DNA of 64,000 bases from an uncultured virus (IMG/VR IMGVR_UViG_3300020599_000006) (Duplodnaviria > Heunggongvirae > Uroviricota > Caudoviricetes). Below, piece by piece: positions 30,241 through 50,615 of this stretch. The notes below the pieces were generated by a model that saw nothing but the letters and a program-made list of their open reading frames with translations, searched no databases and was not told the DNA's origin. Positions within the stretch are counted from its first letter, which is position 1; each line of letters begins with the position of its first letter. Position numbers and translations under genes: made by a program. Where the stretch lies: IMG/VR virus record IMGVR_UViG_3300020599_000006, one strand, 5' to 3'.

Positions 30241-33200
30241 CTACTGAGTCATCCCTACTGGATAAGACTGGCGGATATGTTCCAGAAAGACAGCCGCGCT
30301 GCGCTCCAACGGAACAGAGCTGTGCATCATGCTCTCCAAACTGGTCTCCAGATCAGTCGGGGTATCGATCCCCATGATCGCAGAGACCTGTTCACGGCTC
30401 CACTCCAGGATGTCTTTGGAACGGGTGGAGATGTTCGGGTCTCCCTGAGTATCCAGGAAGCAGTCGAACACGTACACTTGCTCATCCTGACCCAGACGGT
30501 TACAGCGCGAGATCGTCTGATCACGCTCATGGTCCCGAAATGGCGAGTTGAGCATGATGAGGGTGTTGGCCATGATCAGTGGTACGGCAGTCGACAGCGA
30601 TGGGAAGGTGGCAATCAGGGGATTGGTGTCCTCATCTGTCTCGAACTGCCGGATGATAGCGGCCAGGTTCTTGTTGGTATCACCGTACACCAGTACCGGC
30701 TTGTACCCTAACTCCTTCAAGACCTTCTCCGTTTTCTGCACCACTTCCACGTAACTGGTAAAGATGACGGTCTTCTTGACGGAGTTGTCAATGATCTCCT
30801 GGAAAGGGACGTAATCGACCATCTCCAAGTGACAGCGCGAGCGAGCTTTACCCAGAATACCGCCTAATGCCTCACCCATGACCTTCAAGTTGACGTACTT
30901 GATGATGGACCTGACGCTCTTGAACTCTTTCTTGAGCTGATCCGGCAGAGAAGGAATGATTTTCCGCAATTCGTAAGAGTTGCAGAACATCACCTCGACC
31001 TTCATCTCCTTTGGGTCGTAGAACTTACGGATCATTTCCACGTACTTCTTGTACAGTTGGAAATCCCGTTCGTCTTGGCTGTTACGGATCGACTTCTCAT
31101 GCAGCTTCAAGCAGTCGTCGAAAAGGCGTTCATAATCCTTCATGCCCTTGCGATAGAACTCCAGACGCTGTTCGATGAACTTCGTCATGTCCTCACGAAC
31201 CCGTTCCAGTGTGAAGTCCTTCGCGTTAGGCGTCTTGATGTTCACTTCCTTGACAGTGGGCGTGCCATCGACCACTTGTTGCTTCGGTACTTTGAAGGTC
31301 AACAGGCCGATGCGGTTCTGGAGGATATCCAGGGCTCGTTTAGCATCACGACCGTAGATCTTCTTGAAGCGCTCTTCGACATGAGCAGGGAAGTCACCAC
31401 AGATGGTGCGTAGCAGAGGGATACATTCGTAACCCATAGCCTTGATCGGGGTACCCGATGCCCAAAGGATGTTGGTGGACTGGGTCAACTTGCACAGTTC
31501 GATGAAATTCTGGGTTCGTTGAGAGTTGATCTCATTGAAATTGTGCGATTCGTCCAACGCAATGAAGACATCATCGCCCTTTTCTTTAAGGCGCTTAGCC
31601 AAATCCAGTGCCCGATCCAGTGCTTCGTAGTGGAAGACGTAGAAACGCCGCCCTACAGGCGCTGCTTGACCGGGCATATTGGAAATCCAGTAGCTCGGCG
31701 ACTTGGGCATGTTGTACTTGATCGTTGCTTCCCACACCCGCTCGATGGAATTCTTCGGTGCGATGATGATACCGACCTTAACCTTGAGACAAACTGCCAG
31801 GGCGAGGTCGGTGACGGTGTTGTGGGTCACCACGTAGTCATCAATGACAAACAACTTCGATGGGTGCTCCACACTGATGCACACTGCTTCATCAACATCG
31901 ATTGGCTCGATACTCCGAATACGCAGTTTCAGCCCTTTGGAGTACTGGTTTTCCTCCTTAGCTAGCTCCTTCTTACGAGGTAGTCTGAAGCAATCGGCAG
32001 GGCATTTCATCCGAATAGACAGAACATAGTTAAGTCGACCCTGACGACGTTCACCGTTGTGGGTGTAGTGCGGCAGTTTTGTACCAATTCGGCAAATACC
32101 ACCGAGGGACCAGACAAGTTTTTGCACATTCGCAGCCAGCTCAGGACTGCTTGTGCTATAAGTCACACCACCAGCCTTGCCTACAGTTCCATCGGTGTCC
32201 ATCAGACCTTGGAGAAGGGCCAGTCGTTGTTCATGACTACCGTCTAGGTACTCAGGCGGAATGAACTTTTCGAAAGAATAGCTTCCGAACAAATTCATAT
32301 CGCGAATAGCGTTTGTTACCTGGTTGGTTCTAGGTTGGTTCGCTATCCGTTCAGCCACCACTTGATAGTCGACACTATCACGATGTTCAAGTGAGTGTCC
32401 ATTTGGGAGCAACCTCTGTACTTCACTGCGAATGAACTCGTCCGGGGTGCTAAGCATGGTACACGTCCGCATAGAGCCGTCGCCTAGCAATACACCCATT
32501 AGGTAAGGATCGAGCGGAAGGTCTTGGTCCGGACCAATTTCGCTGCGAGCAAGGGGAACGTAAAGCATGTCGTCATTGTCTTTACCAAGAAGACTCATCA
32601 GCTCCTTGGTGTTACGAACCTTCCATTCGTCTCTATTACCGCCATTACGGCGGTTACTCCACCACAGATGATCGGCACAGACGTCAGCCACCCGCCCATC
32701 CCAAAAAGTCACGCGATAGAGTTGTAATTTACCCTGCGGGTAAACACCCGTAACAGCAGTGGCAGTGCCATCAACCGAAATAACTTGGTCACCGATTTTT
32801 AGTTTATCGATCCTGCGCCACCCACCAGGGATTTTCACCCGCGTGTCAGCACGACAGGCCTTACCCGAGCCAGGGGGTGCTGCCAGGAGCATGCCCTTAA
32901 GCTGATACTGCTGGCGGATGCGGTCGTAGGTGTTCAGGAAATCCTTTTGGTGGGGCAGCAGAGGAAAGCCGATCTCATCGAGTTTACTGTAATCCAGGAT
33001 CGACTGGGTGGGAGGCTCCATGATGCCTTTCAACCAAGTCTTTTCCTTAAGCTCCTCGATGATCTTACCGATGGCTCGACGAGAAGTGCGAGTTTTCCTG
33101 TCCTCGTAGAGCTGCTCAAACATGTAGAGCACGTCCACTGCGAAGAATTGGTGGAAAACCACCTTACTGCGCGTGGCTGAGGTGAACATGTTCATGCTGA

Positions 33201-33330
33201 TCCGAGAGGTGGACCAGAAACGTTGGATGTCGTTGAGGATTTCCCAGCCAGGGATACCATCGATGATGATAGACCCCTTCACTTCCTCAACCCGTACAAG
33301 GCCTATTAGCCGTTTAATGCCAGAAAGCAT
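30241..33330 (-). CDS. SNF2-like superfamily 2 helicase with intein
   Basis: LLPHQ, GSGK[intein]T Walker A, LDESH, ASGTP, QTISRCNRLGQ motifs. Confidence 0.9.
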   Translation of the reverse strand: MLSGIKRLIGLVRVEEVKGSIIIDGIPGWEILNDIQRFWSTSRISMNMFTSATRSKVVFHQFFAVDVLYMFEQLYEDRKTRTSRRAIGKIIEELKEKTWLKGIMEPPTQSILDYSKLDEIGFPLLPHQKDFLNTYDRIRQQYQLKGMLLAAPPGSGKACRADTRVKIPGGWRRIDKLKIGDQVISVDGTATAVTGVYPQGKLQLYRVTFWDGRVADVCADHLWWSNRRNGGNRDEWKVRNTKELMSLLGKDNDDMLYVPLARSEIGPDQDLPLDPYLMGVLLGDGSMRTCTMLSTPDEFIRSEVQRLLPNGHSLEHRDSVDYQVVAERIANQPRTNQVTNAIRDMNLFGSYSFEKFIPPEYLDGSHEQRLALLQGLMDTDGTVGKAGGVTYSTSSPELAANVQKLVWSLGGICRIGTKLPHYTHNGERRQGRLNYVLSIRMKCPADCFRLPRKKELAKEENQYSKGLKLRIRSIEPIDVDEAVCISVEHPSKLFVIDDYVVTHNTVTDLALAVCLKVKVGIIIAPKNSIERVWEATIKYNMPKSPSYWISNMPGQAAPVGRRFYVFHYEALDRALDLAKRLKEKGDDVFIALDESHNFNEINSQRTQNFIELCKLTQSTNILWASGTPIKAMGYECIPLLRTICGDFPAHVEERFKKIYGRDAKRALDILQNRIGLLTFKVPKQQVVDGTPTVKEVNIKTPNAKDFTLERVREDMTKFIEQRLEFYRKGMKDYERLFDDCLKLHEKSIRNSQDERDFQLYKKYVEMIRKFYDPKEMKVEVMFCNSYELRKIIPSLPDQLKKEFKSVRSIIKYVNLKVMGEALGGILGKARSRCHLEMVDYVPFQEIIDNSVKKTVIFTSYVEVVQKTEKVLKELGYKPVLVYGDTNKNLAAIIRQFETDEDTNPLIATFPSLSTAVPLIMANTLIMLNSPFRDHERDQTISRCNRLGQDEQVYVFDCFLDTQGDPNISTRSKDILEWSREQVSAIMGIDTPTDLETSLESMMHSSVPLERSAAVFLEHIRQSYPVGMTQ
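31819..32859 (-). mobile_element. intein with LAGLIDADG homing endonuclease (class-3 type), 347 aa
   Basis: GSGK|ACRADTRV...DHLW...LMGVLLGDGS...LLQGLMDTDGT...AVCISV...VVTHN|T; removal restores GSGKT. Confidence 0.92.
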
Positions 33331-33387
33331 GGTATGACCCTTTTGGGATGTGTTAAAATTCATAAGATTTTCTAGCGAGGCCTAACC

Positions 33388-34425
33388 ATGCCAAGCGTTT
33401 CTGAGAAACAGCGCCGTTTCTTCGCCATGGCGCACAAAGACCCGGCTTTTGCCAAGAAAGCGGGCATCGATCCTAAAGTGGCGAAGGAGTTTTACGAGGC
33501 AGACGAGGCATTGACTGAGGAAGAGCGCGAAAAGATCTACAAGGAACACGCCAAGAAGAAGCTGGAGGAGATGGGTGAGAGCGCCTCGGCCGAATCCTTC
33601 ATGGAACTGTGCGAATTCCGCACTGCGTTGGAATCCTTGATGCGCACAGGCCAGACCCTGCTGCAAATACCATCCCTGGAAGACTCGGCGGTCTCTGATT
33701 ACAAAGAAATTGCCAACCAGGTGCTGGCACCGGCAGGTCTGACGGTCGATATTCCTGGCACCATCAGCGGTGTGGACCCCAATACCGATCTGGAAGTAAC
33801 CCTTGAGGCGATTTACCACTATAGCCTCATGACCGAAGACGCCATCCATCGCGCTGTGGGTCTGGAAGCCAAGCATAAGGCTGCATTGGAAAACTTCCAG
33901 ACCATGTTTGGCGATCCTTTCAAGGAATCGGCCAAGATGCCGGCTGTGTCCGGGACGTCTGCTGTTACCCTGAACCCTTTTACGCGTGATCTGTCGCAAT
34001 ATCCAGATGCGAATGCCATTCGCTGGATTGAAGCGCGTAAGAATCTCGATTCCCTCGCCATCCTGCTCAACGGTATCCCGAACATCCCCACGGGTAAGCT
34101 CTCCGGGGACGAGTTCAACGCCGTCAAGCGTCTGGTGAAGGCTACCATGTGCAACATCGGCTTCTACGTCGACGAAGTAGATTACGCCACCGACATTACC
34201 TCGCTCTCCGAGGTGCTGGGACGGGCGATCCAGATCGTCACGGCGAAGATGCAGGCTTCCTGGAAGCCTGGCATGCCAGGTTACGGGATCGAGTCCCTGG
34301 ATCTGAACGAGTACGATAACGAGTACTACGGCTTCTTCTCCAAAGAAGCGGTCATGGCTATGTTTGGCAGTTCTCACACTCGGAAGAAGAACCAGGCAGA
34401 TCAACCCTCAGAAGGAGACGCCTGA
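33388..34425 (+). CDS. probable virion head protein
   Basis: Multiple S/A/G-X-E motifs (ALES, SLED, GLEA, ALEN) like phiKZ prohead protease sites. Confidence 0.55.
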   Translation: MPSVSEKQRRFFAMAHKDPAFAKKAGIDPKVAKEFYEADEALTEEEREKIYKEHAKKKLEEMGESASAESFMELCEFRTALESLMRTGQTLLQIPSLEDSAVSDYKEIANQVLAPAGLTVDIPGTISGVDPNTDLEVTLEAIYHYSLMTEDAIHRAVGLEAKHKAALENFQTMFGDPFKESAKMPAVSGTSAVTLNPFTRDLSQYPDANAIRWIEARKNLDSLAILLNGIPNIPTGKLSGDEFNAVKRLVKATMCNIGFYVDEVDYATDITSLSEVLGRAIQIVTAKMQASWKPGMPGYGIESLDLNEYDNEYYGFFSKEAVMAMFGSSHTRKKNQADQPSEGDA

Positions 34426-34431
34426 TGAACA

Positions 34432-34792
34432 TTGGCGTGGGCGAAGGTTAGCCAAGTCCAAGGAACACGGTAAATAATAATGGCACAATGACACCATTAT
34501 ATGCAGGACTCCACTGTCCTCGTGTTCCTTAACAAATGATCGGTCTCCCTGAACGGACTTTCGAGTCCTGCCACAGGCCACCCCTAAAGCGGGATAACCG
34601 CTCCTAAGTGCTCCTACGACGTTCGAGCACCGCCATCGGAAGTCTGTAGCCTGATCGTTCGGAAAGCGCATTCAGTCATTGGTCCCCTGTCCTTTAACCC
34701 GCGCTAGGCCAACCAGCTACACCTGTCCTTTGGTAACGCACAGCCGTGCACAGCCCACCTCGGTAGGTAACTGCCGAGGTGGGTCTATACCG
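34432..34792 (+). ncRNA. structured non-coding region (putative ncRNA or 3' trailer)
   Basis: AAGGAACACG/CGTGTTCCTT helix enclosing two hairpins; UUCG and GTAA tetraloops; no credible ORF. Confidence 0.55.
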
Positions 34793-34799
34793 CGTCTTC

Positions 34800-35070
34800 T
34801 AATTTGGGAAGCTGCTACTTCCCGAGTCTCTTGTAACTCACCGTGTAAACAAGAGTATTGCCTGCCAGCAACAGTGCTGCGACAACGCCCAACCATTTCC
34901 AGAGGCCGCGTTGCAAAAGCGAACGGTACGACCATTAAACCGCGTTGCCGCGCGGTGGTAAGTTGTGTAGTTAGCAGAGGTTCAACTCTGAGCTAGTGCG
35001 CAGCCTTCATGCATTTGCCCACTGTCCAAAGGACTCTGGTGAAATCCATGAGGGAAGTGCATTGGAGGCA
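34800..35070 (+). ncRNA. structured non-coding region with T-loop-like hairpins
   Basis: Successive hairpins with G-U pairs on + strand; AGAG-GTTCAA-CTCT and TGG-TGAAAT-CCA. Confidence 0.55.
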
Positions 35071-35232
35071 CCGCGATGGAAAGAAGAATAAAAAGCCAAC
35101 ACGACCATCCCGCCTATTACATCCTGGCGATGTTTGTACTGTTCTTCCTGGATGGTCCCACCTCCTTCTATGAACGCGCTGTACCCACCCGGGTCCAGTA
35201 TCCCATGGTTTGTCCCATCCAGGTAACGAAAT

Positions 35233-35514
35233 ATGCCCTCGCCATCGATCATCCAGGTCCCACCCTCAGTCCAGCCCGTGCAGTCGTTCGAGTTCCGTGA
35301 GCCGCTTTATGCTCGCGACGACATCGTCAAGCACTACAAGGGTCAGCACTACCGTGTGATCTTTACGCCGGCTGACGGTTTCCGTACCGAGGCCAGCAAC
35401 GAACCTGCCTATGCGTATTGCAAGGCAGAATCAGCACCCAATCCTACCACGAACCCTATCTGGGTGCGTGTTCAGAACGAGTTCGAAGACACGGCGAAAT
35501 TCATGCCTGTGTAA
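35233..35514 (+). CDS. DUF1653-like protein
   Basis: VKHYKGQHYRV...Y...IWVR...EF motif; start uncertain. Confidence 0.6.
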   Translation: MPSPSIIQVPPSVQPVQSFEFREPLYARDDIVKHYKGQHYRVIFTPADGFRTEASNEPAYAYCKAESAPNPTTNPIWVRVQNEFEDTAKFMPV

Positions 35515-35737
35515 TTTTTTACTGATCATGCCGATGTTTTGAAGGAAGGCAACGGCCAGAATCCTCTACCTGCTCGTCAAGCCTTCCTTCACGCCTTACT
35601 ACCTTCAACGGTCGCTCGGGATGTGGCCAATGCTGGTGGTAAGGCACCTATTCCAGTTTGCTCCAGACGGTTCTTCCCAGTGCGCTCGTTTCCCCCGGCG
35701 ATAGCATCAACTCCTAGCCGTCTGGAGCCCCTACAGT

Positions 35738-35910
35738 GTCACCTTTAGCTCATCGGTAGAGCACTGCTATCCATTTGCTGCGTCGACATGCAGCGAGTCA
35801 GGCCCCGATCTCGATCGGACATGCCTGGCTGTTCGGTTCCCCAGCAATGGGAGAACTGGAAGTCACCGACATGGCAGAGGTAGATGGTTCAATTCCATCA
35901 AGGTGCCCCA
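35738..35910 (+). ncRNA. tRNA-like RNA with ~100-nt structured insertion in the anticodon loop
   Basis: GTCACCTT-TA-GCTC..GGTA-GAGC-A-CTGCT[insert]GGCAG-AGGTA-GATGG-TTCAATT-CCATC-AAGGTGCC-CCA. Confidence 0.8.
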
Positions 35911-36218
35911 ATCTTTACCAGAGCTTGCCAAATGCAGCTCGGGTTTGTGGAGTAAGTGTCACGGCTTTCCTCTCGCCCTGGGAAGCGAGAATCGGCATGA
36001 CATGACGCAGGCTCAGGCCGCTGTCTCCAGAAACAAGTGAACGAGTACCCGCTCCAGTAGCGAGGCCTGGACGAATTAAAGAACTTCTGTTAGAGAAACG
36101 ACATTCAACGAGTACCAGCCGGTGGCTCGAGTGGACGATTAAGGTTGTTCTCGGCGGCCGTTCTAACAGGAATGAGAGTGATTCGGTGTACTCCCCGATG
36201 AGCAAGCCGAGAACGATT

Positions 36219-36380
36219 TTGAGACGATGCCGACGAGTGGCGGAATAGAAACATCGGAATACGCGGGGATCGCATCCCCAGGTAGGAGATATGACTCCGG
36301 CGGCCTGCCTGTTGGTCCCTACGTGGCTTGTGGGTTCGAGCCCCACCTCAGAGAGAACAGGACACTAGGCATCGTCTCAA
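36219..36380 (+). ncRNA. tRNA-Leu-like core enclosed by a 13-bp terminal stem
   Basis: TGGCGGAA...TACGC D-arm-like region; GTGGG-TTCGAGC-CCCAC T arm; TTGAGACGATGCC/GGCATCGTCTCAA closing helix; no CCA. Confidence 0.7.
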
Positions 36381-36388
36381 CTTTTTAT

Positions 36389-36463
36389 TCGCCCTTAGCA
36401 AAGCGGTAATGCGCACGACTGTTAATCGTGTTATCCTAGGTTCGAATCCTAGAGGGCGAGCCA
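36389..36463 (+). tRNA. tRNA-Asn (GTT)
   Basis: Canonical cloverleaf: TCGCCCT/AGGGCGA, CACGA-CTGTTAA-TCGTG, TTCGAAT loop, G-CCA. Confidence 0.95.
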
Positions 36464-36470
36464 TTTCCAT

Positions 36471-36548
36471 GACTCACTTAACTCAGCGGGTAGAGTGCTG
36501 CCTGGCACATGGCAGAAGTCGGTGGTTCAAGTCCATCAGTGAGTCCCA
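36471..36548 (+). tRNA. atypical tRNA with 8-nt anticodon loop (TGGCACAT)
   Basis: GACTCACT/AGTGAGTC-CCA; CTGCC-TGGCACAT-GGCAG; GGTGG-TTCAAGT-CCATC. Confidence 0.75.
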
Positions 36549-36565
36549 ATTTCCATCAGTTCCAT

Positions 36566-36718
36566 GAAATCGCTTAGCTCACCGGTAGAGCGCTGACATA
36601 CTGGTTCGACTCCAGACCTTGCCCCGCCTCCGGGCCACGGCGAGGGTTCCATCCTTCGGGTTGGGACATTCGGTAAACTTGTCAGAGGTACCTGGTTCGA
36701 TTCCAGGAGCGTTTCCCA
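36566..36718 (+). ncRNA. tRNA-like RNA with ~80-nt insertion in the anticodon loop containing a second T arm
   Basis: GCTC..GGTA-GAGC-G-CTGACA[TA-CTGG-TTCGACT-CCAG...]TGTCAG-AGGTA-CCTGG-TTCGATT-CCAGG-AGCGTTTC-CCA. Confidence 0.8.
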
Positions 36719-36725
36719 TTTCCAT

Positions 36726-36794
36726 GACGCATGTAGTTTAGTGGTAAAACGTCGCCCCCTCAATGTGTCACGGGTTCGAGTCCCGTCTGCGTCA
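36726..36794 (+). ncRNA. tRNA-like element lacking an anticodon stem
   Basis: GACGCA/TGCGTC acceptor, GTTT-AGTGGTA-AAAC D arm, ACGGG-TTCGAGT-CCCGT T arm. Confidence 0.65.
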
Positions 36795-36796
36795 TT

Positions 36797-36871
36797 GGCG
36801 CAGTAGCTCAGATGGTAGAGCAATTGAACCACTTGGCGAAGTCACCGGTTCGATTCCGGACATACGTCCCA
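36797..36871 (+). ncRNA. degenerate tRNA-like element
   Basis: TAGCTCAGATGGTAGAGC D arm, CCGG-TTCGATT-CCGG T arm, CCA end; anticodon and acceptor stems poorly paired. Confidence 0.6.
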
Positions 36872-36879
36872 ATCGCGAG

Positions 36880-37164
36880 ACAGTCAGGTCTAACCTGATT
36901 GTATGTGCGCCAGCTGCTGTTTTCCTTGGCGGTTGCTGGCGCCAGTGGTGACTGAGTCTGTCGCGAGACTCGAGAGTCATCACAGCTGGACCCTGCGGCA
37001 ATGTAGCACGGCCGTTGTCGCGGATCGTCCAGCACGCCCTGGCCGTCACTGATGGCCGACCCTGCCGTTGCGCCGGCGAGCCTCCTGGACACACCCCCTG
37101 GGACGGCTCGCCGGCGGCGGCCCCTATTATGGAGCCCCTGCCTAATGGCAGGGGCTTTATGCCG
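36880..37164 (+). ncRNA. run of long GC-rich hairpins ending in a terminator-like element
   Basis: Six consecutive stems then AGCCCCTGCC-TAAT-GGCAGGGGCT-TTATGCCG. Confidence 0.55.
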
Positions 37165-37233
37165 CATTGGTATGTGGAAGACCCCCCCCTTTTATGTACG
37201 CCAACCCAACCATCATTGCAAGGACACTTCTCC

Positions 37234-38709
37234 ATGTCTTTTGATATCCTCAAAGACCTCAAGGCCTCCCTGGAAGAACAGGACACGGCGTACGAGGGTA
37301 CCGACCAAGAACTGGCCTCTGACATCGCTGTCCTCCAGGCGGATGCCAGTGAGGGCACTACGTCCCTTTCCGACGCCCTGGACAAGCAAGCAGAAAGCAC
37401 TGCTCTGGCCGATTCCTTCGACCAACTGGCTACCCGTGCAGAGGAAGTCATTGGCACTGACAACGCTGATGTCGCCATTGAACATCTGGCGTTCGGTCTG
37501 ACCACGTTGATGGCTTCCAAGGGCGTGCAGTACCAAGGGGCTTCCATGGAGTCTCTGACTTCCGTAGCCACCACTGCTCGCACCATGTCCAGTAACGTGC
37601 GTAAAGCGGCTCGTGTCAGTCTGGAAGCCACCTTCCGTGAGGTACAGAACGAGATCGAAGGTACGGTGGACGATACCGTGACCAGCGCGGGTCTGCTGCA
37701 ACAAGCGATTGCTCGTATCGCCAGCAAGGCTAAGGACATCGAAGCCAACGGTGTGGTGCTGAACCACAAGGGCGTCTACCAGTTCCTGCATCGCGATGGC
37801 AAGTCGCTGTCCACGCTCTCGGGTGCCATGGCTGGCGACCTTAAGACCATTAAGGACCTGATCGCTGCAGCCCGCGAGATCAACAGCCAGTACGAGAAAC
37901 TGGCAGACGACATCATCAAGACCGGTGATGACATCAACGGCCTGCGTAAGGTCGTGGCCAGTCTGCTGGCGTTTGACAGCCGTAAAATTCTGACTCGCTT
38001 TGTCGGTGTCAAGACCCTGAACAACGGTTACTTCGAGGTAACCCGCGGGGGCAACATCGGAGAAGATGGCGATTCAATGGACGTCTACCCGCACCTGTAC
38101 TGGGACTACGACATTGTTTCCAGCGATGGCTCCAAAGCCCCGCTCAAAGAGCGCGTATCGGGTGCTCTGAAAGTGGGTGCTGCTGTGGGCATCGTTACCG
38201 GTGCCATCGGCGGAATGGTGGGTAATGTTCCGGGTATCGTTATTGGCGGTATCGGCGGTGCGTTGATGGGTGCCAAGGCGGGTTCTAGCGGTGCCAACCA
38301 CCAACATGCTGGTTCCTTGACTGAGAGTACCACCTCTATCAAGGACATGATCAAGTTCCTGAAGGACATCCAGTCGGCTGCCAAACTCATCTGGGAAGTC
38401 AACAGCCTGCTCGACAGTGCCTATGATGACTCCGCACGGGTGGACAAGCTGTTTGGCATCATGACCCACATCGGTGACATGGACTCCGATGACAGCGTCA
38501 CCAAGTTCCTGCAAGCCTTCTCCAGCGCAATGACTGGCGTATCGGCCAGCTCTCCGGCTGAGACCAGGCTGGACCGTCTGACCACCGTCCTGCATCAGAA
38601 GACCGACGAGATGTACGCCGCCCACATGTCTCTGCTTAACGCGGCCAGCGAGATAGCAGAAACCGCAGTGGACAATGGACTGACCATTGCCCGTACTCTG
38701 CTGAAGTAA
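37234..38709 (+). CDS. phiKZ-like internal head protein
   Basis: Acidic N-terminal region with ASLE, ASME, VSLE motifs; Gly-rich hydrophobic segment; AAGGA RBS. Confidence 0.7.
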   Translation: MSFDILKDLKASLEEQDTAYEGTDQELASDIAVLQADASEGTTSLSDALDKQAESTALADSFDQLATRAEEVIGTDNADVAIEHLAFGLTTLMASKGVQYQGASMESLTSVATTARTMSSNVRKAARVSLEATFREVQNEIEGTVDDTVTSAGLLQQAIARIASKAKDIEANGVVLNHKGVYQFLHRDGKSLSTLSGAMAGDLKTIKDLIAAAREINSQYEKLADDIIKTGDDINGLRKVVASLLAFDSRKILTRFVGVKTLNNGYFEVTRGGNIGEDGDSMDVYPHLYWDYDIVSSDGSKAPLKERVSGALKVGAAVGIVTGAIGGMVGNVPGIVIGGIGGALMGAKAGSSGANHQHAGSLTESTTSIKDMIKFLKDIQSAAKLIWEVNSLLDSAYDDSARVDKLFGIMTHIGDMDSDDSVTKFLQAFSSAMTGVSASSPAETRLDRLTTVLHQKTDEMYAAHMSLLNAASEIAETAVDNGLTIARTLLK

Positions 38710-38761
38710 ACGTCATACAGCGAGGGGAGCAATCCCCTCGCTTATACGGATAGGAGTCAGA

Positions 38762-39166
38762 ATGAAGAACACTACGATTTATAGCGCCCGGCTAGCGTTA
38801 GGCATTTCCACCACTGCGATGGCTGAGAAAATGTGCATTGCTAAGCGCACCTGGGAAGTTTGGGAGAATGGTCAGCGTAAGCCGGATAAACGCACACTGA
38901 TGCAGATTGCCCAACTGATCAACCAGGAGGGTAAACAAGATATTGTTGGTCTGAAGTTTGTGGGTGATGAAAGCGTGACCTATCTTCATCGTCGCCACTT
39001 CATCGAATTGCGTAAACTGGACGATCACCATCGCTGGCTCATGCGGTACGTAGACCTGCGTGCAAGCGAGCACGGTCAACCCGATCCACGTATCTGTGAG
39101 TGCATGTTGTCAGAAGTTGTTCAAGCCGATGCTGACGTCTTGGAAGTTGTTATGAACTGGAGTTAA
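38762..39166 (+). CDS. XRE-type HTH protein
   Basis: ARLALGIS...MAEKMCIAKRTWEVWENGQRKP. Confidence 0.7.
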   Translation: MKNTTIYSARLALGISTTAMAEKMCIAKRTWEVWENGQRKPDKRTLMQIAQLINQEGKQDIVGLKFVGDESVTYLHRRHFIELRKLDDHHRWLMRYVDLRASEHGQPDPRICECMLSEVVQADADVLEVVMNWS

Positions 39167-39235
39167 CTCCACCTATTACTTATGCTGTAATATTTTACTA
39201 ATCAGCAACTTCCTATGCAAAGAGGAGACATCATC

Positions 39236-39334
39236 ATGGCCTGCGGTATCTATGAAGCACCCCTGTCTACCCGCAAGAAGAAAGTCAAGAACATCAGCCT
39301 GAACATGATGGCACTGCTGTCACGTTCTCGCTAA
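39236..39334 (+). CDS. 32-aa basic peptide (not in ORF track)
   Basis: AGAGGAGA RBS; MACGIYEAPLSTRKKKVKNISLNMMALLSRSR*. Confidence 0.55.
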   Translation: MACGIYEAPLSTRKKKVKNISLNMMALLSRSR

Positions 39335-39339
39335 CCAGC

Positions 39340-39660
39340 TTCGGGATAGGTGATTCAATTCACTGCGTGGATCGGATGCGAAAAGACATCTGTCCCGAAC
39401 TTAATCGCAGATGCGATCTGACGGTCCTCTCTATCGTTCTCTGACCGGGCAGTATATCGAGGAAGAGATTCGCACCCTCTTCTAAAGAGCGATACGATCG
39501 TGGCGTCGCGAAACGCTGCGGTAAGCTGTAGAGCTGGCTGTACACTGAGGCGGTCCTTTGCTGGCCGTAAGGTGGGCTGCCCCTGCGGGGGCTTTACCAG
39601 ACTGCAACCTGCAAGTCCTTTAGTGTGCTGGCGCCAGTGCTATAAGGGCCTTGTGGGTTG
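39340..39660 (+). ncRNA. putative ~320-nt structured ncRNA
   Basis: TTCGGGATAGGTG/CATCTGTCCCGAA, TATCGTTCT/AGAGCGATA, GTACACTGAGG/CTTTAGTGTGC and further nested helices with G-U pairs. Confidence 0.6.
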
Positions 39661-39692
39661 AGTCCTGGATTTATTCCCTTTTAGGAGTGACC

Positions 39693-40313
39693 ATGAGTAC
39701 CATCGCTGTTAAAATCCCGCTGATCCAGCCGGGGCTGCTGAGCCTCTTCAACATGACTCGCGACTGGCCCGATGCGTCCCTCACTGACTCCATCGGCAAA
39801 ATCGTCCTTGGTGACGTTCTCAACGAGGATGGCACCCCCAATGCGACGTACCTGGTGGCATTCCATTCGGACAGTAACGAGAACTCCCGTAGTCCGTCTA
39901 TCACCGTCTTCGAAGGTCGTGTCAGCGCCGATGCGGTAGTGGCCAACGTGATCATCAGTCGGGAAACCGGTCTGATCAATGTCTACACCAAGCATGACCT
40001 GAATGGTCTGTCGCTGGAACTGGGTGTAGAACGCGTGAACTACAACCGCAGCCCTGCTCGCCTGGAAGACCGCTCCAACATCCTCCAGGTAGCATTCAAC
40101 GACTGCGTGGGCGATGCCACCCTGACCCGCGAACAGCTGGTCGCCAAGGTCGAAGAACGCGTCAAGCAGATCATCGACGAACGTCTGGGTGACCCGAACT
40201 TCAAGACCAAGGTCTCGATCAAGGACATGCAAGCTGATGGAGGTTATCAGTGGAGTGTTCTGGTTGCGATCGATCCCCTGGAACTGACTCTCGACCGTCA
40301 GACTGAGGGTTAA
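39693..40313 (+). CDS. hypothetical protein
   Basis: AGGAG RBS before MSTIAV. Confidence 0.7.
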   Translation: MSTIAVKIPLIQPGLLSLFNMTRDWPDASLTDSIGKIVLGDVLNEDGTPNATYLVAFHSDSNENSRSPSITVFEGRVSADAVVANVIISRETGLINVYTKHDLNGLSLELGVERVNYNRSPARLEDRSNILQVAFNDCVGDATLTREQLVAKVEERVKQIIDERLGDPNFKTKVSIKDMQADGGYQWSVLVAIDPLELTLDRQTEG

Positions 40314-40316
40314 GCC

Positions 40317-40769
40317 ATGGCACAGGTACCTACGACGTATGCGGTCTTTGATCAGTGCGTGCAAGGCCTTACTGAAATCAGTCAAGCCGCAGTGGCGCGT
40401 GCTGTCGAAATGGGGTTATCCCCCATCGACATCTTGCGGGACTTTAAGACCTACGGGTTCCACGTTCCAAGGCAGACAGGTGCGTTGAGCTGGGTAACGC
40501 TTAATCTCGTCAAGAACCCCAGGGCTATCGCCATTGTTCTCGATCACCGCATCAAGGAAATGGTTTACGGCGTTCATACCTGCGATAATCGTTTTCTGAC
40601 CTATCGAGAAGTCCAAGGTATGGTCGGAGACCTCGGGAAAGTCTGGGACGTGGATACGATCTACATCTACGACTCAGCACGTGTCTTTTCCAAGTTGCGT
40701 ATTCAGAAGTTCTACGACTGGCTAGCGACCTGGGATAAACTGCCCGAGAAGATCATCCGCATCAACTGA
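40317..40769 (+). CDS. hypothetical protein
   Basis: GAGGG RBS; 150 aa. Confidence 0.65.
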   Translation: MAQVPTTYAVFDQCVQGLTEISQAAVARAVEMGLSPIDILRDFKTYGFHVPRQTGALSWVTLNLVKNPRAIAIVLDHRIKEMVYGVHTCDNRFLTYREVQGMVGDLGKVWDVDTIYIYDSARVFSKLRIQKFYDWLATWDKLPEKIIRIN

Positions 40770-40775
40770 GTTAAT

Positions 40776-40861
40776 GCCTGGGTCGCATAGCGGCCGATTG
40801 CACCTGATTCGTAATCAGGACCCGTAAGGGCACGTGGGTTCGAATCCCACCCCAGGCTCCA
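40776..40861 (+). tRNA. tRNA-Thr (CGT) with long variable arm
   Basis: GCCTGGG/CCCAGGC, CCTGA-TTCGTAA-TCAGG, CCC-GTAA-GGG variable arm, TTCGAAT loop, T-CCA. Confidence 0.88.
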
Positions 40862-41162
40862 TATTGGCCTATAAGCCCACTGCTAGCTTACCACTGACAC
40901 GTCCCACTGAGTGCACGCAGTTGGGAACGCAGCTTGCGAGGCTCCTCCGCAGGTGTGGCGTAGTGTTATCCTGAGGGGTTGTCCGAGAGCCTTCATGAAG
41001 GATAGGGCATGTGACTTGTAGGTGGAATAGATAACCGAGGTAGGATGGGGTGGCTAAATGCCACCCCATCTATGCCGTATCTCCCGTATTTATTGGTAAA
41101 AAATTAAGAAATAGTATGGGTTCTCTGGATTCCCCAGAGGGCTATAAAGGAGACCTCCCGTC

Positions 41163-41693
41163 ATGAAAATCAATGCTTCGCTGTCTACTCTGGCGAACAT
41201 CATCGCTCTGGTCAACGGCGTCAACGCCGGTCTGAACCTGACCGATGAGCAAGTGACCATCGGTCAGGCTTCGGCCTACGTACCCGGTGAGGGTGATCTG
41301 AACAGCCAGATCACGCTGTCGGGTGTGAACGGCAAAGGCTTCCAGGGTGACGTTACCATCCACTACAAGCGCCCGGTGCTGCAACCGGGTGGTGCCTGGG
41401 GCAATGCCCTGGGGGATGGCATCCCGTCTGTACCGTCCGCTGCCACCCAAGCCCAAGCCCTGACCCTGGCTGCCACCCACCTGGGTCTGGTGGAATCCGA
41501 GCTGGACGCCTCGGCCTTCACCGCGCCGGCAGACGAGCTGACCAATGGCAGCATCACCATCACTGCCAAGGACGGTAGCCCGCTGTATACCGGCAGCTAC
41601 GTCCTGACCCTGGTGGGTCAGGACACCGATCAGAACCTGGCTGATGCCGTAACCGTCACCGACATGGACGGTTTCGACGACGCCGACGCCTAA
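41163..41693 (+). CDS. virion structural protein (paralog family)
   Basis: N..ALVN.VN, NS.....G.G..G...HYKR pattern; C-terminal V..MDGFD. Confidence 0.7.
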   Translation: MKINASLSTLANIIALVNGVNAGLNLTDEQVTIGQASAYVPGEGDLNSQITLSGVNGKGFQGDVTIHYKRPVLQPGGAWGNALGDGIPSVPSAATQAQALTLAATHLGLVESELDASAFTAPADELTNGSITITAKDGSPLYTGSYVLTLVGQDTDQNLADAVTVTDMDGFDDADA

Positions 41694-41749
41694 TCGGCCA
41701 CCCGTGCTCTTTTAGGAGGGCACGGGTTTTTTATGCCCTGGAGACTTTC

Positions 41750-42042
41750 ATGAAAGTAGATCTCACAAAGTCAGTAAAGGAGAACGTGGCCCTGCTGATC
41801 AATGAGGCTAACCCCACGTTAAATCCCCCGCTGACACCTGACATGTTCAACATCGTTTCAATCAGCAATCCCAAGTCCAAGCTAAAGTGGCCAGCGCAAT
41901 CGGTGTGGGCAATCAGTACAACTTGAACTTGACAGATCTGGTTATGCCCACTGAAGACGTCCAAGGGTCTGTCAACGTAGCTGCCTGGGAAGGCAATGAA
42001 TACTACTACAGTACGGTCAAGTCCGTGATCCTTACCCTGTAA
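41750..42042 (+). pseudogene. internally deleted, frameshifted structural paralog
   Basis: MKVDLTKSVKENVALLINEANP in one frame; ...VQGSVNVAAWEGNEYYYSTVKSVILTL* in the -1 frame. Confidence 0.55.
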
Positions 42043-42077
42043 CGGCATAAACGGGGGCTATCCCCCGTTTATGCCGA

Positions 42078-42608
42078 CTAGGCGTTATCAAACCCGTCCA
42101 TGTCACGGACGGTGATGGCGGCGGACAACACTACATCACCCGACAGCGGTACAGTGAACTGCGTACCAGGAATAAACCCCGGTGAGGTGTTAGCGGCCGT
42201 TAGAACGATCTGAGTATCCGATAGTCCAACAGCCCCATCCACCACATCCAACGGGTCTAGCACCACACCATACAACGTATTGATCGCCTCCAAGAACCCA
42301 TGAATGGTTCCCGTCGCCCTGGGCAGAGAGTAGTCGCCGACTGGGAAAATCAACGGGAAGTTAATCCGGTTGTACTTGAACGTGATCGACTTGGTGTAAT
42401 GGAACCCTGGTTTAGGCTTTACGACCACTGTGCTGTTGTACCCAGGTTCATCCGTATAGACGTTGGGTGCCTCGATCAGGATGTCATCCAACGTCAAGTC
42501 CCTGTTCAGTACAGAGCGATTGACGTTTCGATTGATCAGTGCCAGCAGGTTGTCTTTCGAGGAGACCTGAGTGTCAAACACCGGCGATGTGACGACAGCA
42601 AACGCCAT
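42078..42608 (-). CDS. virion structural protein (paralog family)
   Basis: SKDNLLALIN, YNRINF, MDGFD motifs. Confidence 0.7.
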   Translation of the reverse strand: MAFAVVTSPVFDTQVSSKDNLLALINRNVNRSVLNRDLTLDDILIEAPNVYTDEPGYNSTVVVKPKPGFHYTKSITFKYNRINFPLIFPVGDYSLPRATGTIHGFLEAINTLYGVVLDPLDVVDGAVGLSDTQIVLTAANTSPGFIPGTQFTVPLSGDVVLSAAITVRDMDGFDNA

Positions 42609-42680
42609 CGTCTGTCGTACCTGCCAATTCCCAGTGTCTCGTATTACAGCGTAGACCTTGTCCTGTCTTACCCTCATGGC

Positions 42681-43790
42681 TTAGGTCCCCGTTCTGAGCC
42701 TCAGCGTGGCATTGGCTACCTTGCTCTTGTTCCATGCCAGACCGTCAGGTGCCGTGTCGGCATTGATCGTCCGGTATGTATCACTGGTGGTGGCGGGTGT
42801 GATCGAGGATTCGGTGCCACCTACGATGCTGGATTTGAGCGGTTGACCGGAGGTACTTTCGCGCCTCACCCGGGTGCCCATGAGCACGGTTTTAACCTGT
42901 GCCAGATCGGGGATAGCACTGACATCGACCTTGATGTCCAGGTTCTTCGCCGAGGCACTGCTGGCTTCATCACAGTTCAGGTAAGGCGTTTCCAGGTCCG
43001 TGTTGGTCAGCGGTTTGTTCAACACCTCCACCTTGTCGGCCGCAGTGCCCTGGATAGTCCAGTCGTCGCCTACGGCCGACACCACGGGTAAGGGGATGAT
43101 GCGAATCGGACCTAAACGTTCACCTACACCGACCGTATCGGTCAGGTTGTAGTCGAAGTAGATATCGCGCATCCAGTGTGTACCGGCCATGTTCACGTTA
43201 TCGCCAGCGGCATCCGAACCGCCACCACCCCACAGTAGCCACCAGCTACCACTGGTGTTGTTGATCGCAGTACGGAACGCCGATGCAGCAGCGCCATCAT
43301 AGATGACTTGGTCATCTAGCCAGCACGACAGCCAACCAGTGCTGGCAAAGTACTTCATTTCGAAGTAGTGTTCTTTGCCGTCGTTGATTTGATCGATCGT
43401 GAGCAGGTTCTGGTAGTTGTATACGCCTGCTGTTACCAGTCCATACATGCGCAGGATGGGTTTACTGGTGGTGCCCGTGTAGTTCTCGACCTTGACCCGA
43501 CAGCCAAAGCGCAGCAGACCTTTAGGAGTGGTCGAGAGCTTCTTCAGGTCCCAGATACCGCGCATGGTCTTGGTGCCAACCTGTTTGGAGGTAGCCACCA
43601 TCTTCAACCAGCCGTTCTCAAGGGAGAAAGAACCCCCATCAGATGCTACGTAGTTGTAGAGCTGGCAAGCAAATCCAGCTGCGTTACCTGCCTGGGCGTT
43701 GGCCAGTCGCCACATTTCAGCGCCATAGCCGCTGACAGCAGCACCCCAACTGGTACCTTCCGGAAAGCCTTCCATTGGGAGGAAGTTCAT
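42681..43790 (-). CDS. probable virion structural protein (beta-rich)
   Basis: 369 aa, Trp/Gly-rich, inside the structural cluster. Confidence 0.65.
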   Translation of the reverse strand: MNFLPMEGFPEGTSWGAAVSGYGAEMWRLANAQAGNAAGFACQLYNYVASDGGSFSLENGWLKMVATSKQVGTKTMRGIWDLKKLSTTPKGLLRFGCRVKVENYTGTTSKPILRMYGLVTAGVYNYQNLLTIDQINDGKEHYFEMKYFASTGWLSCWLDDQVIYDGAAASAFRTAINNTSGSWWLLWGGGGSDAAGDNVNMAGTHWMRDIYFDYNLTDTVGVGERLGPIRIIPLPVVSAVGDDWTIQGTAADKVEVLNKPLTNTDLETPYLNCDEASSASAKNLDIKVDVSAIPDLAQVKTVLMGTRVRRESTSGQPLKSSIVGGTESSITPATTSDTYRTINADTAPDGLAWNKSKVANATLRLRTGT

Positions 43791-43804
43791 GACTGTTTAC
43801 CCTC

Positions 43805-44134
43805 TCAGTTGTAATGGATAGCCATTACGCCGGTGAGCGTCTGGTTAGACGCAGGGAACCTTAGCAGGAGTACGTTGGCGAACGTGGAGTTCGACGGCAG
43901 CATCTGGAGGTTCTTTCCATTATGCACCACTTGGGTGCCGGCCAGACTCAGCTTGTCACTGATCGCTTCATCGGTCCAGTTACCCTTGGTCTCGGGGTTG
44001 GTGTCGATATCGTTCAACGCAGCAGCCAAGAAGTGGCGATGCGTGTCATCCAGCTCACCGAGCGGGATGGTGGAAAGTTCTTCCTGGAACGGGGTGAAAT
44101 CCGAACGGAAGAAGTGGTTGTTCCACTTTTTCAT
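43805..44134 (-). CDS. virion structural protein (C-terminal-domain-only paralog)
   Basis: Ends with IHYN like family members. Confidence 0.6.
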   Translation of the reverse strand: MKKWNNHFFRSDFTPFQEELSTIPLGELDDTHRHFLAAALNDIDTNPETKGNWTDEAISDKLSLAGTQVVHNGKNLQMLPSNSTFANVLLLRFPASNQTLTGVMAIHYN

Positions 44135-44148
44135 TAGGTGTCTCCGAA

Positions 44149-44631
44149 TTAGAAGCCGACCAGGGCATTGCTCGTAAAGAGCGTGCTGATGTCAGGGTAA
44201 GAGGCCAGTTGCAGCGTGTAGCTACCCGTGAAACCGAGGGAAGTGGGCTTAGCCTCCAACATCACCTGGATCATCGAACCCATTTCTTCCACCTGATGGT
44301 CGACTAGGTCATCCTGGGTGAAAGTCACACCAATCATGTTACGGATGATGTCAAGCACCGTATAGACCGACACGTTTGGATCGACTGAGTTCTTGGTGAA
44401 GGTGAAGTTGCCCAATTGCGAGAGGTCTAGACGATCGTAGTAGACCTTCGACCTACCCTGGAAGGGGCTGCTGGTGTTGGTGATGACCCAGACTTCGGTG
44501 TTCTTTTGACTGACGCTGCCATCGTGTGGTTTTAGTCCGACAAAGGACACCATGGAATCCGAGAGGGTAGAACCCGCCGCGGTGGTCAGCATCAGGGCAA
44601 TGTCTGCTGACGACTGTTGGAATGTCGACAT
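44149..44631 (-). CDS. virion structural protein (N-terminal-domain paralog)
   Basis: NT.V....SPFQG..VYYDRLDL, AKPTSLGFTG motifs. Confidence 0.7.
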   Translation of the reverse strand: MSTFQQSSADIALMLTTAAGSTLSDSMVSFVGLKPHDGSVSQKNTEVWVITNTSSPFQGRSKVYYDRLDLSQLGNFTFTKNSVDPNVSVYTVLDIIRNMIGVTFTQDDLVDHQVEEMGSMIQVMLEAKPTSLGFTGSYTLQLASYPDISTLFTSNALVGF

Positions 44632-44634
44632 AGA

Positions 44635-45534
44635 TCACCCGTTGTAGTGGAGGTACATGACGCCCTGGAACCAGGACGTTGCCTGGGCCGTGAGCATCAG
44701 CACTTTGCTGTACTTGGCGGAGTTAGCAAATGGATAAGACGCGTTCGGCAGAGCAGAGAGTCGAGTGTAAGCCAAACCGCCCATACCCCCCTGGACACTG
44801 TGTGCCTGAGAGGCATCGAACAGGTTCGACCCCATTTGCTTATTCATCTCCGCCACGATTGCTGTCAGGTTTGCGTTACCCGCGGCCATGGAACCAGAAG
44901 CAGCCAAGCCGTTGATCGTAGCTGCTACAGCAGAGAGATCCATGCCATAGGTCAGGTAGTCGCCTTGGGTCTTACGACCGCCATCAAAGGTGTTTCCACC
45001 CTGCCAGAGACGTCCATTGAGGTCATGACTGCCCCCATTGTTCGAGACGATGGCATCGTCCAGATCCCGCTTAGCTTTGACATAGCGAGCACTGAACTGA
45101 CCGATGAAACACTGAGAGCCCGTACACGTCATGGCCGTGGAAGTGCTGCCTATCCCCGCACTGTTGCTTGGGAAGTCTTCCACGCGCAGGTAGAGTCCAA
45201 AGCGCTGGTTGATCTCTGCGATGACTTGTGCAATCGGCAAAGCGGTAGCGCTGTTCCAGGTCGTGAGTGTGATCGGCGAGATGTTCTTAAAGAGTTTTGA
45301 CAGGTCAATCCGTCGATACTTGATATCCAGCACACCAATGGCGGCAGTCCCAGGTGCTGCCCGCAGGCGAGCAATGGTGTTTGCAATCTCACCGGCTTGC
45401 GGGGTGTAGCTGCGCAAGTTATCGATGACGAAACTGCCTTTGGCGAACTTGTCCTTGAACCCAGGGTTAGCCTCTTCGATCAAGTCGTAAAGAAGGTCAT
45501 CCTGTGGCTTACGAAAGTCGGTCATGTTGGCCAC
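44635..45534 (-). CDS. virion structural protein (paralog family)
   Basis: LLYDLI..AN, YRRIDL, YLHYN motifs. Confidence 0.75.
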   Translation of the reverse strand: MANMTDFRKPQDDLLYDLIEEANPGFKDKFAKGSFVIDNLRSYTPQAGEIANTIARLRAAPGTAAIGVLDIKYRRIDLSKLFKNISPITLTTWNSATALPIAQVIAEINQRFGLYLRVEDFPSNSAGIGSTSTAMTCTGSQCFIGQFSARYVKAKRDLDDAIVSNNGGSHDLNGRLWQGGNTFDGGRKTQGDYLTYGMDLSAVAATINGLAASGSMAAGNANLTAIVAEMNKQMGSNLFDASQAHSVQGGMGGLAYTRLSALPNASYPFANSAKYSKVLMLTAQATSWFQGVMYLHYNG

Positions 45535-45585
45535 CTTGTAGAATGAATGACGGGGTGAATGATCACCCCGTCTATGCCGCCACTA

Positions 45586-46461: not shown

Positions 46462-46473
46462 GAGTCGGCCTCG

Positions 46474-47415: not shown

Positions 47416-47429
47416 GCTTCAGCCCTCAG

Positions 47430-48200: not shown

Positions 48201-48211
48201 GACAGGCCTCC

Positions 48212-49054: not shown

Positions 49055-49058
49055 GTCG

Positions 49059-49883: not shown

Positions 49884-49955
49884 CGCGCTTCCTCCTAAAC
49901 CGAATAAACGGAGGTGGGGAAGACCCCACCTCCGTCGCGGTTAATGGTGAGTGGG

Positions 49956-50486: not shown

Positions 50487-50615
50487 TTTGATACTCTCAT
50501 GAGAGGGAAGGGAAGGGTGTAAACCCAATGCACGTTGGCCTATGCATACGATAAGTTAAAAAATACAGACAGTAAGTAAGTACAGAACTGCCCGATAATC
50601 TGAGTACTAAAAAGC

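Follow-up and report, generated by a model that had tools for sequence, protein, structure and literature searches.

A tRNA-Val-like RNA with a large anticodon-arm insert in a jumbo phage, and its possible place in a small family of non-decoding tRNA mimics

W_a is a 172-nt RNA encoded on the + strand at positions 35739-35910 of a 64,000-nt stretch of DNA (hereafter the window), which comes from an uncultured virus of the Caudoviricetes (IMG/VR record IMGVR_UViG_3300020599_000006). The window is DNA of a jumbo phage that occurs in soil and wastewater, and its own contig is 276,567 bp long. W_a is found in a 1.7-kb non-coding RNA island on the + strand (35545..37233), together with three siblings that we call W_c, W_d and W_e, a tRNA-Asn and other structured RNAs. 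The island therefore contains four RNAs of the W_a type, and eight T arms are present between 35883 and 36860.

W_a consists of a tRNA body, with acceptor stem, D arm, T arm and an encoded CCA, which carries a large insert in its anticodon arm. An earlier reading made from the sequence alone (the sequence-only reading) had proposed a scaffold resembling tRNA-Val, its anticodon loop expanded by a large insert, and this is borne out both by the predicted fold and by a structural parse. The minimum-free-energy fold has an energy of -69.1 kcal/mol (z -3.56), and none of 200 shuffled sequences was equally stable. This fold contains an acceptor helix (35740-45 with 35900-05), a D stem (35748-51 with 35759-62) and a T stem (35883-87 with 35895-99). 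The anticodon stem CTGCT/GGCAG is extended in the fold by two A-U pairs into a 7-bp helix (35764-70 with 35871-77). In the structural parse the region 35739..35762 comprises the 5' strand of the acceptor (35739-45), TA at positions 8-9 and the D arm (35748-62). It is followed at 35764..35770 by the 5' strand of the anticodon stem, CTGCT, and by an AT that is able to pair with the AT at 35871-72. The 3' part of the RNA (35873..35910) runs from GGCAG through the variable loop AGGTA, the T arm (35883-99) and the acceptor 3' strand (35900-06) to the discriminator C at 35907 and the CCA at 35908-10. The G at 35738 can pair with this discriminator, which would give a possible -1:73 pair. Tested against the features of a canonical tRNA, the body of W_a has six of seven acceptor pairs (there is a U1.C72 mismatch), all four D-stem pairs, all five T-stem pairs and the T loop TTCAATT. 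The anticodon loop does not fit the canonical form of 7 nt with U33, there being 104 nt between the stem strands and a C at position 33; A37 is present.

The 104 nt enclosed by the 5-bp anticodon stem are made up of a 97-nt 5' part with three hairpins, and the anticodon-like 7-mer CCGACAT (35866..35872), in which, numbering backwards from the T arm, GAC occupies positions 34-36. The insert measures about 95-97 nt and is positioned 5' of the anticodon (31/32 to 33/34). Hairpin 1 (35776..35795) has a helix of 35776-83 with 35788-95 and carries GACATG at 35785. In the fold its GAC is unpaired with a probability of 1.0 and its AUG is mostly paired; alternatively this hairpin can form a 5-bp stem with an 8-nt loop, resembling the anticodon arm of W_c. 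Hairpin 2 (35796..35830) is closed by a helix of 35796-803 with 35823-30 and includes an inner hairpin at 35805-18 (CCGAT/ATCGG, 35805-09 with 35814-18). It carries GACATG at 35818, the ACAU being unpaired immediately 5' of the 3' strand. Hairpin 3 (35832..35860; helix 35832-43 with 35848-60) does not contain GACAT. The helices named in the sequence-only reading are present, with the exception of TCGGT/ACCGA, which is possible but competes with the more stable hairpin 3. The idea of three hairpins that each carry GACATG holds for hairpins 1 and 2, the third copy being located in the 7-mer of the main arm and not in hairpin 3. W_a is not called by tRNA finders, neither by ARAGORN nor by Rfam at the gathering score and at E values up to 10 (+ strand, 35738-35910). 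A transfer-messenger RNA (tmRNA) was also considered and rejected, ARAGORN making no such call.

The three copies of GACATG (35785, 35818 and 35868) lie within 83 nt, and the tightest other triple in the window spans 1,444 nt. All eight GACAT positions given for the + strand by the sequence-only reading were confirmed, and the 1,079-nt stretch that holds them is the richest in the window. The + strand contains 101 copies of GACAT in 64 kb, a background of 1.58 per kb where about one per kb had been assumed. When the 172 nt of W_a were shuffled with dinucleotides kept, some 6-mer was present three times in 111 of 2,000 shuffles. Across the window GACATG occurs 60 times against 46.7 +/- 7.3 expected, a number reached in 4 of 100 shuffles, and GACAT occurs 178 times against 150 +/- 12 expected. 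The motif count is real yet just modestly above chance, and it is the structural placement that carries the weight: in hairpins 1 and 2 and again in the main arm, (C/G)GACAU stands directly 5' of a 3' strand that begins with G. Among the family RNAs that we compared (described below), GACAU within the insert is particular to W_a. The five further copies downstream stand in unrelated contexts, namely a stem strand, a T-arm/acceptor junction and other RNAs. The earlier suggestion of a multivalent element is not supported, since the insert copies are not conserved in relatives, which the sequence-only reading had itself named as a ground for refutation. The triple GAC-AU display is a lineage-specific elaboration.

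The siblings of W_a share its general plan and differ in the size of their inserts. W_c (36472..36548, + strand) has an 8-nt anticodon loop (TGGCACAT) that holds CAC and has one extra base. ARAGORN labels this RNA Ala(GGC), and its acceptor stem is 8 bp long when followed through a G-1:C73 pair. W_c could be a frameshift-type or a non-decoding tRNA. In W_d (36568..36718, + strand) the tRNA body carries three hairpins as an insert of 76 nt; the first of them is T-arm-like, and the 7-mer TAAACTT follows the insert. W_e (36727..36871, + strand) is a dumbbell: an outer tRNA body with CCA has an anticodon stem that leads into a circularly permuted inner tRNA-like domain, followed by the 7-mer ACCACTT. 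The outer anticodon stem TCGCC/GGCGA stands opposite the inner stem ATTGA/TCAAT across an internal loop of 3 x 7 nt. In the inner domain a T arm comes first, then an acceptor of 7 bp that a 3-nt loop closes, and then a D arm; W_e as a whole forms 40 canonical pairs. It is homologous to an RNA (F1) of Burkholderia phage FLC9, to which it is 73% alike over 89 nt. The island's tRNA-Asn (36389-36463, + strand) is normal.

The permuted inner domain of W_e has the module order of the YrlA RNAs (RF02553; Chen et al. 2014, PMC4201824), non-coding RNAs with a tRNA-like module that is recognised by tRNA enzymes. These RNAs might be thought to form particles of the Y RNA type, as YrlA-like partners of the Ro60 (Rsr) protein, the more so as W_e, whose T arm, closed acceptor and D arm follow one another as in YrlA, reaches 48.1 bits (E 1e-8) with the Rfam model of YrlA. 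This score is below the gathering cut-off of 69 bits and is explained by the permuted tRNA-like domain itself; W_a gives no match. Tandem tRNAs are a known source of false positives (PMC4201824), and the model was weakly positive in 13 of 14 control genomes. A TROVE (Ro60) protein was found neither among the 81 scanned open reading frames (ORFs) of the window nor in FLC9, the one relative scanned. The motif GNCGAA(N)G is absent from W_a and, by reading, lies on the 3' strand in W_e. YrlA has free 5' and 3' ends on a Ro60-binding stem and adjoins rsr. A tRNA-like module of the YrlA kind is absent from W_a. Of all the explanations considered here, this is the one to which we would give the least credence.

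W_a-like RNAs are also found in the tRNA arrays of five cultured jumbo phages, namely Ralstonia phages RP12, RP31, FLC1-1B and FLC4-3B and Burkholderia phage FLC9, and they are unannotated in the records of all five. FLC9 has two dumbbells and one insert-bearing tRNA. The four Ralstonia phages have one insert-bearing tRNA apiece, the RP31 copy being identical to that of RP12. The RNAs were parsed by coordinates, with four from the window and five from cultured phages; a further RNA of FLC9 (F3) was added by eye as a tenth. Two RNAs with differing bodies, one of type II shape in RP12 (L020, ~2283-2393) and one in FLC9 ('F4'), were left out of the count. The former is an unannotated tRNA of type II-like form, the anticodon loop of which contains about 25 nt. 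In FLC9 an unannotated, insert-bearing tRNA-like RNA on the - strand of L017 (~2590-2420) has a 13-bp terminal stem and a T arm.

The nine parsed RNAs share a common design. All 45 cells of the 5-bp anticodon stem that encloses the insert form pairs in these nine, with eight different stem sequences, and the stem is fully paired in all ten members when F3 is counted. The seven bases 5' of its 3' strand read N-N-N-A-C-N-N in all nine RNAs, and in ten of ten when F3 is included. The resulting triplets, GAC, CAC, AAC and UAC, are all four valine anticodons, N34 taking every letter. Positions 32, 33, 34, 37 and 38 all vary and positions 35-36 are invariant; position 33 is U in none of the nine, and position 37 is a purine in two. 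The discriminator is A in all five cultured-phage RNAs and C in all four window RNAs, three of which have a G at -1 that is able to pair with C73. This invariance of A35-C36 amid varying neighbours suits an RNA whose reader is a protein and not the ribosome. In this respect the earlier suggestion of a protein-binding RNA is partly supported, without the multivalent display that went with it.

Support for the shared fold comes from covariation. In four RNAs of the cultured phages pairing is found in 94.9% of cells, and with slid partners this falls to 35-51%; three of the five pairs of the anticodon stem have changed on both sides. A covariance model built from these four RNAs has its best match in W_c (42.6 bits), against 24.3 bits for the canonical tRNA-Asn and 23.2 bits for the tRNA-Thr of the window. 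It matches W_d at 20.2 bits, spanning the insert. The family is defined by a class I tRNA body, by a 5-bp stem within which an insert lies on the 5' side of N-A-C, and by location in a phage tRNA array, and all of these are found in W_a. The insert itself can be one base (W_c), a lone hairpin whose loop is GAAA or GUAA (FLC1-1B and FLC4-3B), a nested hairpin (FLC9 F2), three hairpins (W_a and W_d) or a whole tRNA-like domain (the dumbbells). Insert size and sequence thus vary freely while the enclosing stem is kept by compensatory change.

Inserts that differ so strongly by lineage behave as swappable cargo would, and they fold well. The tRNA might be a mere chassis: the insert would do the work through protein- or RNA-binding hairpins, the body would serve for processing and stability, and the valine letters would be left over. 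The other highly structured RNAs of the island (z -5.4 and -5.0) suit this explanation too. Ponchon and Dardel reportedly engineered tRNA scaffolds in which foreign RNA in the anticodon stem is processed and protected by the cell; these are man-made and have the anticodon removed, whereas the phage RNAs keep A35-C36. Leftover letters should drift, yet 35-36 never do so among neighbours that vary, and each lineage keeps a single discriminator. W_c is retained beside the others although it carries no cargo. We consider the chassis explanation unlikely, although it is the strongest of the alternatives to a valine mimic.

Searches for closer relatives of W_a found none in IMG/VR (where the matches were an unrelated normal tRNA and RP12 itself), in JGI metagenomes or in GTDB genomes. 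When the island was compared with phages by blastn just a tRNA-Asn piece matched, and no synteny was found between the island and the flanks of the FLC9 array. In phages BcepSaruman and RVTF4 only tRNAs of normal length were found. No useful match was obtained when W_c and the 3' half of W_a were compared by blastn with genomes of E. coli, and the description of the body as Val-like therefore rests on anticodon and discriminator, not on overall similarity. In the parts of the RP12 paper available to us one tRNA-Asn is given, and in those of the FLC1-1B/FLC4-3B paper five tRNA genes; these are canonical tRNAs only. No description of the family was found in a literature search, though the supplementary tRNA tables for RP12 and the FLC phages might list extra predictions. 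Long non-coding stretches beside the FLC1-1B and RP12 arrays (L018 3120-3400 and 4060-4850; L020 2610-2880) are conserved between these phages, and the 12-mer CAAGTGAACGAG is common to them and to window positions 36043-36054. These stretches may be homologous structured RNAs.

The island is covered by assembled contigs from RNA sequencing. Four runs were examined, as contigs and not as reads; X10 and X14 are soil metatranscriptome runs from two different studies, and X4 is a probable RNA run. The contigs of X10 and X14 are 100% identical to the window. Those of X10 cover 35554-35906, 35920-36139, 36193-36412 and 36874-37087, with one coding piece at 37805-37977, and those of X14 cover 35564-35803, 36144-36375 and 36883-37094. 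In both runs the upstream coding DNA (34000-35502) has zero depth, and 37173-39000 is bare apart from the 37805-37977 piece. Such bare coding DNA around the island argues against DNA carry-over. The insert of W_a is continuous in contigs from X10 (35554-35906) and X4 (35574-35907), which stop at 35906 and 35907 respectively. Cover is missing over 36505-36838 and was not used as evidence. X4 is a mix of strains, for which 40 of 174 differences were listed, and no conclusion was drawn from the sparse ones in the RNA region. A strain that diverges by 3% was seen in a run termed X3.

The contigs bear on the possibility that W_a is an intron-bearing pre-tRNA-Val, from which an insert of about 95 nt between U33 and G34 would be excised and the halves joined, for example by RtcB, to give a normal tRNA-Val(GAC). 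Excision of 35771-35867 would leave a perfect loop, AU-GAC-AU, and RtcB is encoded by two of four related phages (FLC9 and RP12). There is also a precedent in the Lak megaphages, in which tRNA genes were described with 'enigmatic introns', one of them possibly itself encoding a tRNA (Devoto et al. 2019, PMC6784885). The RNA-run contigs carry W_a with its insert in place, which agrees with the sequence-only reading. No splice joint was found in any of the four runs, where a 76-nt spliced product would not assemble, and the unspliced form was assembled in three; as these are contigs, this counts only weakly against splicing. The splicing endonuclease PF01974 is found in none of the four related phage genomes, and RtcB is absent from FLC1-1B and FLC4-3B. 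The predicted fold lacks a bulge-helix-bulge (a 3-nt bulge, a 4-bp helix and a 3-nt bulge), and the insert lies 5' of the anticodon instead of at the usual 37/38 site. Excision in the relatives would leave a pyrimidine at position 37 (W_d, F2, R1, FLC4-3B and RP12) or C33 (RP12), so that only W_a would give a normal loop, and the single extra base of W_c cannot be an intron. We regard splicing to a functional tRNA-Val as an improbable account, somewhat more so than the chassis.

Two specific intron types were tried as candidates and rejected. A group I intron has no Rfam match at E values up to 10 (Intron_gpI, 35000-41500), and the insert of about 95-97 nt is too short for one, as had been proposed from the sequence. 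A bulge-helix-bulge intron was rejected on the missing motif and endonuclease already described.

The Lak tRNA introns are the nearest published phage precedent for the RNAs described here. In both cases phage tRNA genes are interrupted in the anticodon region, and the Lak insert that is possibly a tRNA recalls the dumbbell W_e. The Lak genes belong to other phages and hosts (Prevotella, 26% GC) and to other tRNA types (Thr, Tyr and others), and they were described as introns placed by tRNAscan in eukaryote mode. The comparison is by description only, and in the accessible portion of that paper no conserved Val signature, family covariation or unspliced expression is reported.

The W_a-type RNAs might also be dead tRNA genes, disrupted by selfish hairpin DNA or by simple decay, as the mismatches in their acceptor stems would allow. 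The insert of W_a has no second copy in the 64-kb window (the best other match is 17 nt, E 0.077). Both site and enclosing stem are kept, with compensatory changes, in four phage lineages, RNA-run contigs cover W_a, and no intact replacement tRNA-Val is found beside it. Gene death is thus very hard to credit.

Other parts of the island are structured or covered by RNA-run contigs as well. The leader at 35545-35738 (+ strand) forms three long hairpins (z -5.4, none of 200 shuffles as stable) and is continuous with W_a in contigs starting at 35554, 35564 and 35574, one from each of three runs. The region 36874-37094 (+ strand) is a highly structured RNA (z -5.0), and it is here that both metatranscriptome runs reach their greatest depth in the stretch (13.8 and 26.1). 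At 36221-36379 (+ strand) an adapter-flanked fragment (36221-36366) was found in X4 at a depth of about 117. The domain here, which includes a T-arm-like hairpin (36330-46), is closed by a stem of 11 bp (36221-31 with 36369-79) and followed by a T run; it may represent a further discrete small RNA. On their 5' side W_c, W_d and W_e are each preceded by the spacer ATTTCCATG (or TTCCATG) (36463-36472, 36551-36567 and 36719-36727). Repeated spacers of their own, rich in GTAGTAG, are present in the arrays of FLC9 and RP12, and the array spacers may be processing signals. A search for sigma-70 promoters found none.

Valine identity in tRNA is set by A73, A35, C36, G20 and G45 (PMC9976931, as far as its accessible text goes). 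The same source describes the valine tRNA-like structures (TLS-Val) of plant viruses, which keep A35 and C36, have A73 or C73 and a possible N-1:N73 pair, are for this reason also substrates of histidyl-tRNA synthetase (HisRS), and play no role in protein synthesis. Judged by sequence and predicted fold, the phage RNAs share this set of A35, C36, A73 or C73 and a possible -1:73 pair, and like the TLS-Val found in turnip yellow mosaic virus (TYMV) they would be viral mimics of tRNA-Val that do not decode. A TLS is the 3' end of an RNA genome and has a pseudoknotted acceptor arm, whereas the phage RNAs are free-standing genes of DNA phages: their acceptor is an ordinary helix of 7 bp, their D and T arms are genuine, and their insert is in the anticodon arm. 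The E. coli thrS operator likewise presents several anticodon-arm look-alikes (of tRNA-Thr) in one RNA, which are read by a synthetase, that for threonine, for a non-decoding purpose (PMC9976931, in part). It is an mRNA leader and has no acceptor arm, whereas W_a has a complete tRNA body with CCA.

A different reader of the same letters would be an anticodon nuclease. The three anticodon-arm-like GAC-AU displays of W_a, together with the RNA-repair ligase RtcB in two of the four relatives, could point to a decoy for a defence nuclease that attacks tRNA-Val, and phage tRNAs have been proposed to counter tRNA-targeting defences (PMC10264068, in the portion accessible). A decoy for an enzyme that cuts the loop needs no intact acceptor end and CCA, and the extra displays are not conserved in relatives. 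What the known anticodon nucleases recognise is the wobble base together with its modification, whereas N34 is free in this family. To our knowledge there is no nuclease specific to tRNA-Val, although no dedicated search was made, and this too counts against a decoy. We would place this explanation a little below splicing in likelihood.

We therefore favour, tentatively and at somewhat less than an even chance, the view that W_a is an expressed, non-decoding mimic of tRNA-Val and belongs to a small conserved family of jumbo-phage RNAs. Under this proposal the tRNA body would let the RNase P, 3' trimming and CCA enzymes of the host mature and stabilise the RNA from an array transcript. The insert, the missing U33 and a pyrimidine at position 37 would bar these RNAs from decoding. 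The reader of A35-C36 and A73 or C73 (here with the possible G-1:C73) would be a tRNA-Val-recognising protein, most probably valyl-tRNA synthetase (ValRS). The RNA would be charged, or at least bound by ValRS, in the manner of the plant-virus structures, and the effect would be either sequestration or use of the aminoacyl-RNA outside translation. In W_a the showing of GAC-AU three times, in hairpin 1, hairpin 2 and the main arm, may raise avidity.

Several points weigh against a valine mimic. ValRS is named as partner purely by inference, and the invariance of A35-C36 could equally reflect a different reader or an RNA-RNA contact. Position 73 is C in the window RNAs, where bacterial tRNA-Val has A, and with G-1 their acceptor end looks His-like. 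Most family members have one or two mismatches in the acceptor stem, and irregular acceptor helices impair valylation of E. coli tRNA-Val (PMC9976931, from the text available). The main GAC of W_a is mostly paired in the predicted fold (unpaired probability 0.11-0.17) through a weak 3-bp GUC/GAC helix. W_a matches the family covariance model weakly (13.2 bits, E 0.019, partial), and its membership of the family therefore rests on the structural parse. The insert-bearing type II-like RNA of RP12, which was left out of the count, has no NAC at the matching place. Finally, contigs cannot show RNA ends, strand or abundance, nor a 76-nt spliced product.

Among the protein-coding genes of the window are Pfam matches to thymidylate synthase, NAD-dependent DNA ligase, an SNF2 helicase with a LAGLIDADG domain and about a dozen DUF7941 paralogs. 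By one DUF7941 protein the nearest named phage is FLC9, at 44% identity. The DUF7941 paralogs, some twelve in a run, occupy 41163-50528; in SPN3US-like phages the proteins related to them carry the annotation of virion structural proteins. The gene downstream of the island starts near 37234 (a database protein of 491 aa) and not at the TTG at 37015; this neighbouring protein has a single relative, at 78% identity, which is encoded on a contig of 161 kb. In the SNF2-type helicase ORF (30241-33363, - strand) the LAGLIDADG domain is internal. The thymidylate synthase ORF (2762-4204, + strand) matches the first 154 positions of the profile across 312 residues, which suggests that it holds an in-frame insert (an intein or similar). 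The tRNA-Thr(CGT) at 40776-40861 (+ strand), 86 nt long in total, is an unusual class I tRNA in having an 11-nt extra stretch in its variable region.

The tRNA genes of phages are commonly attributed to codon supply or to evasion of defences that cut tRNAs. Codon supply does not account for the Val type making up four of the window's seven tRNA-like genes. Here conserved, expressed phage RNAs keep the features that tRNA enzymes recognise, the valine letters included, yet are built not to read codons. This class of RNA is missed by tRNA finders; it stands unannotated in five published genomes of cultured phages and is hence accessible to experiment. A bolder proposal, by analogy with the plant viruses, is that DNA phages have evolved a counterpart of TLS-Val, in the form of aminoacylatable, non-decoding tRNA-Val chimeras that include tRNA-in-tRNA dumbbells and that capture ValRS (perhaps also HisRS or EF-Tu) or carry valine to a non-ribosomal reaction. 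We consider this conceivable, if on balance doubtful. If the RNAs are charged or bound by ValRS, mimicry of tRNA-Val would be common to plant RNA viruses and bacterial DNA viruses, and the way would be open to study, by experiment, a new layer of phage control over the translation factors of the host.

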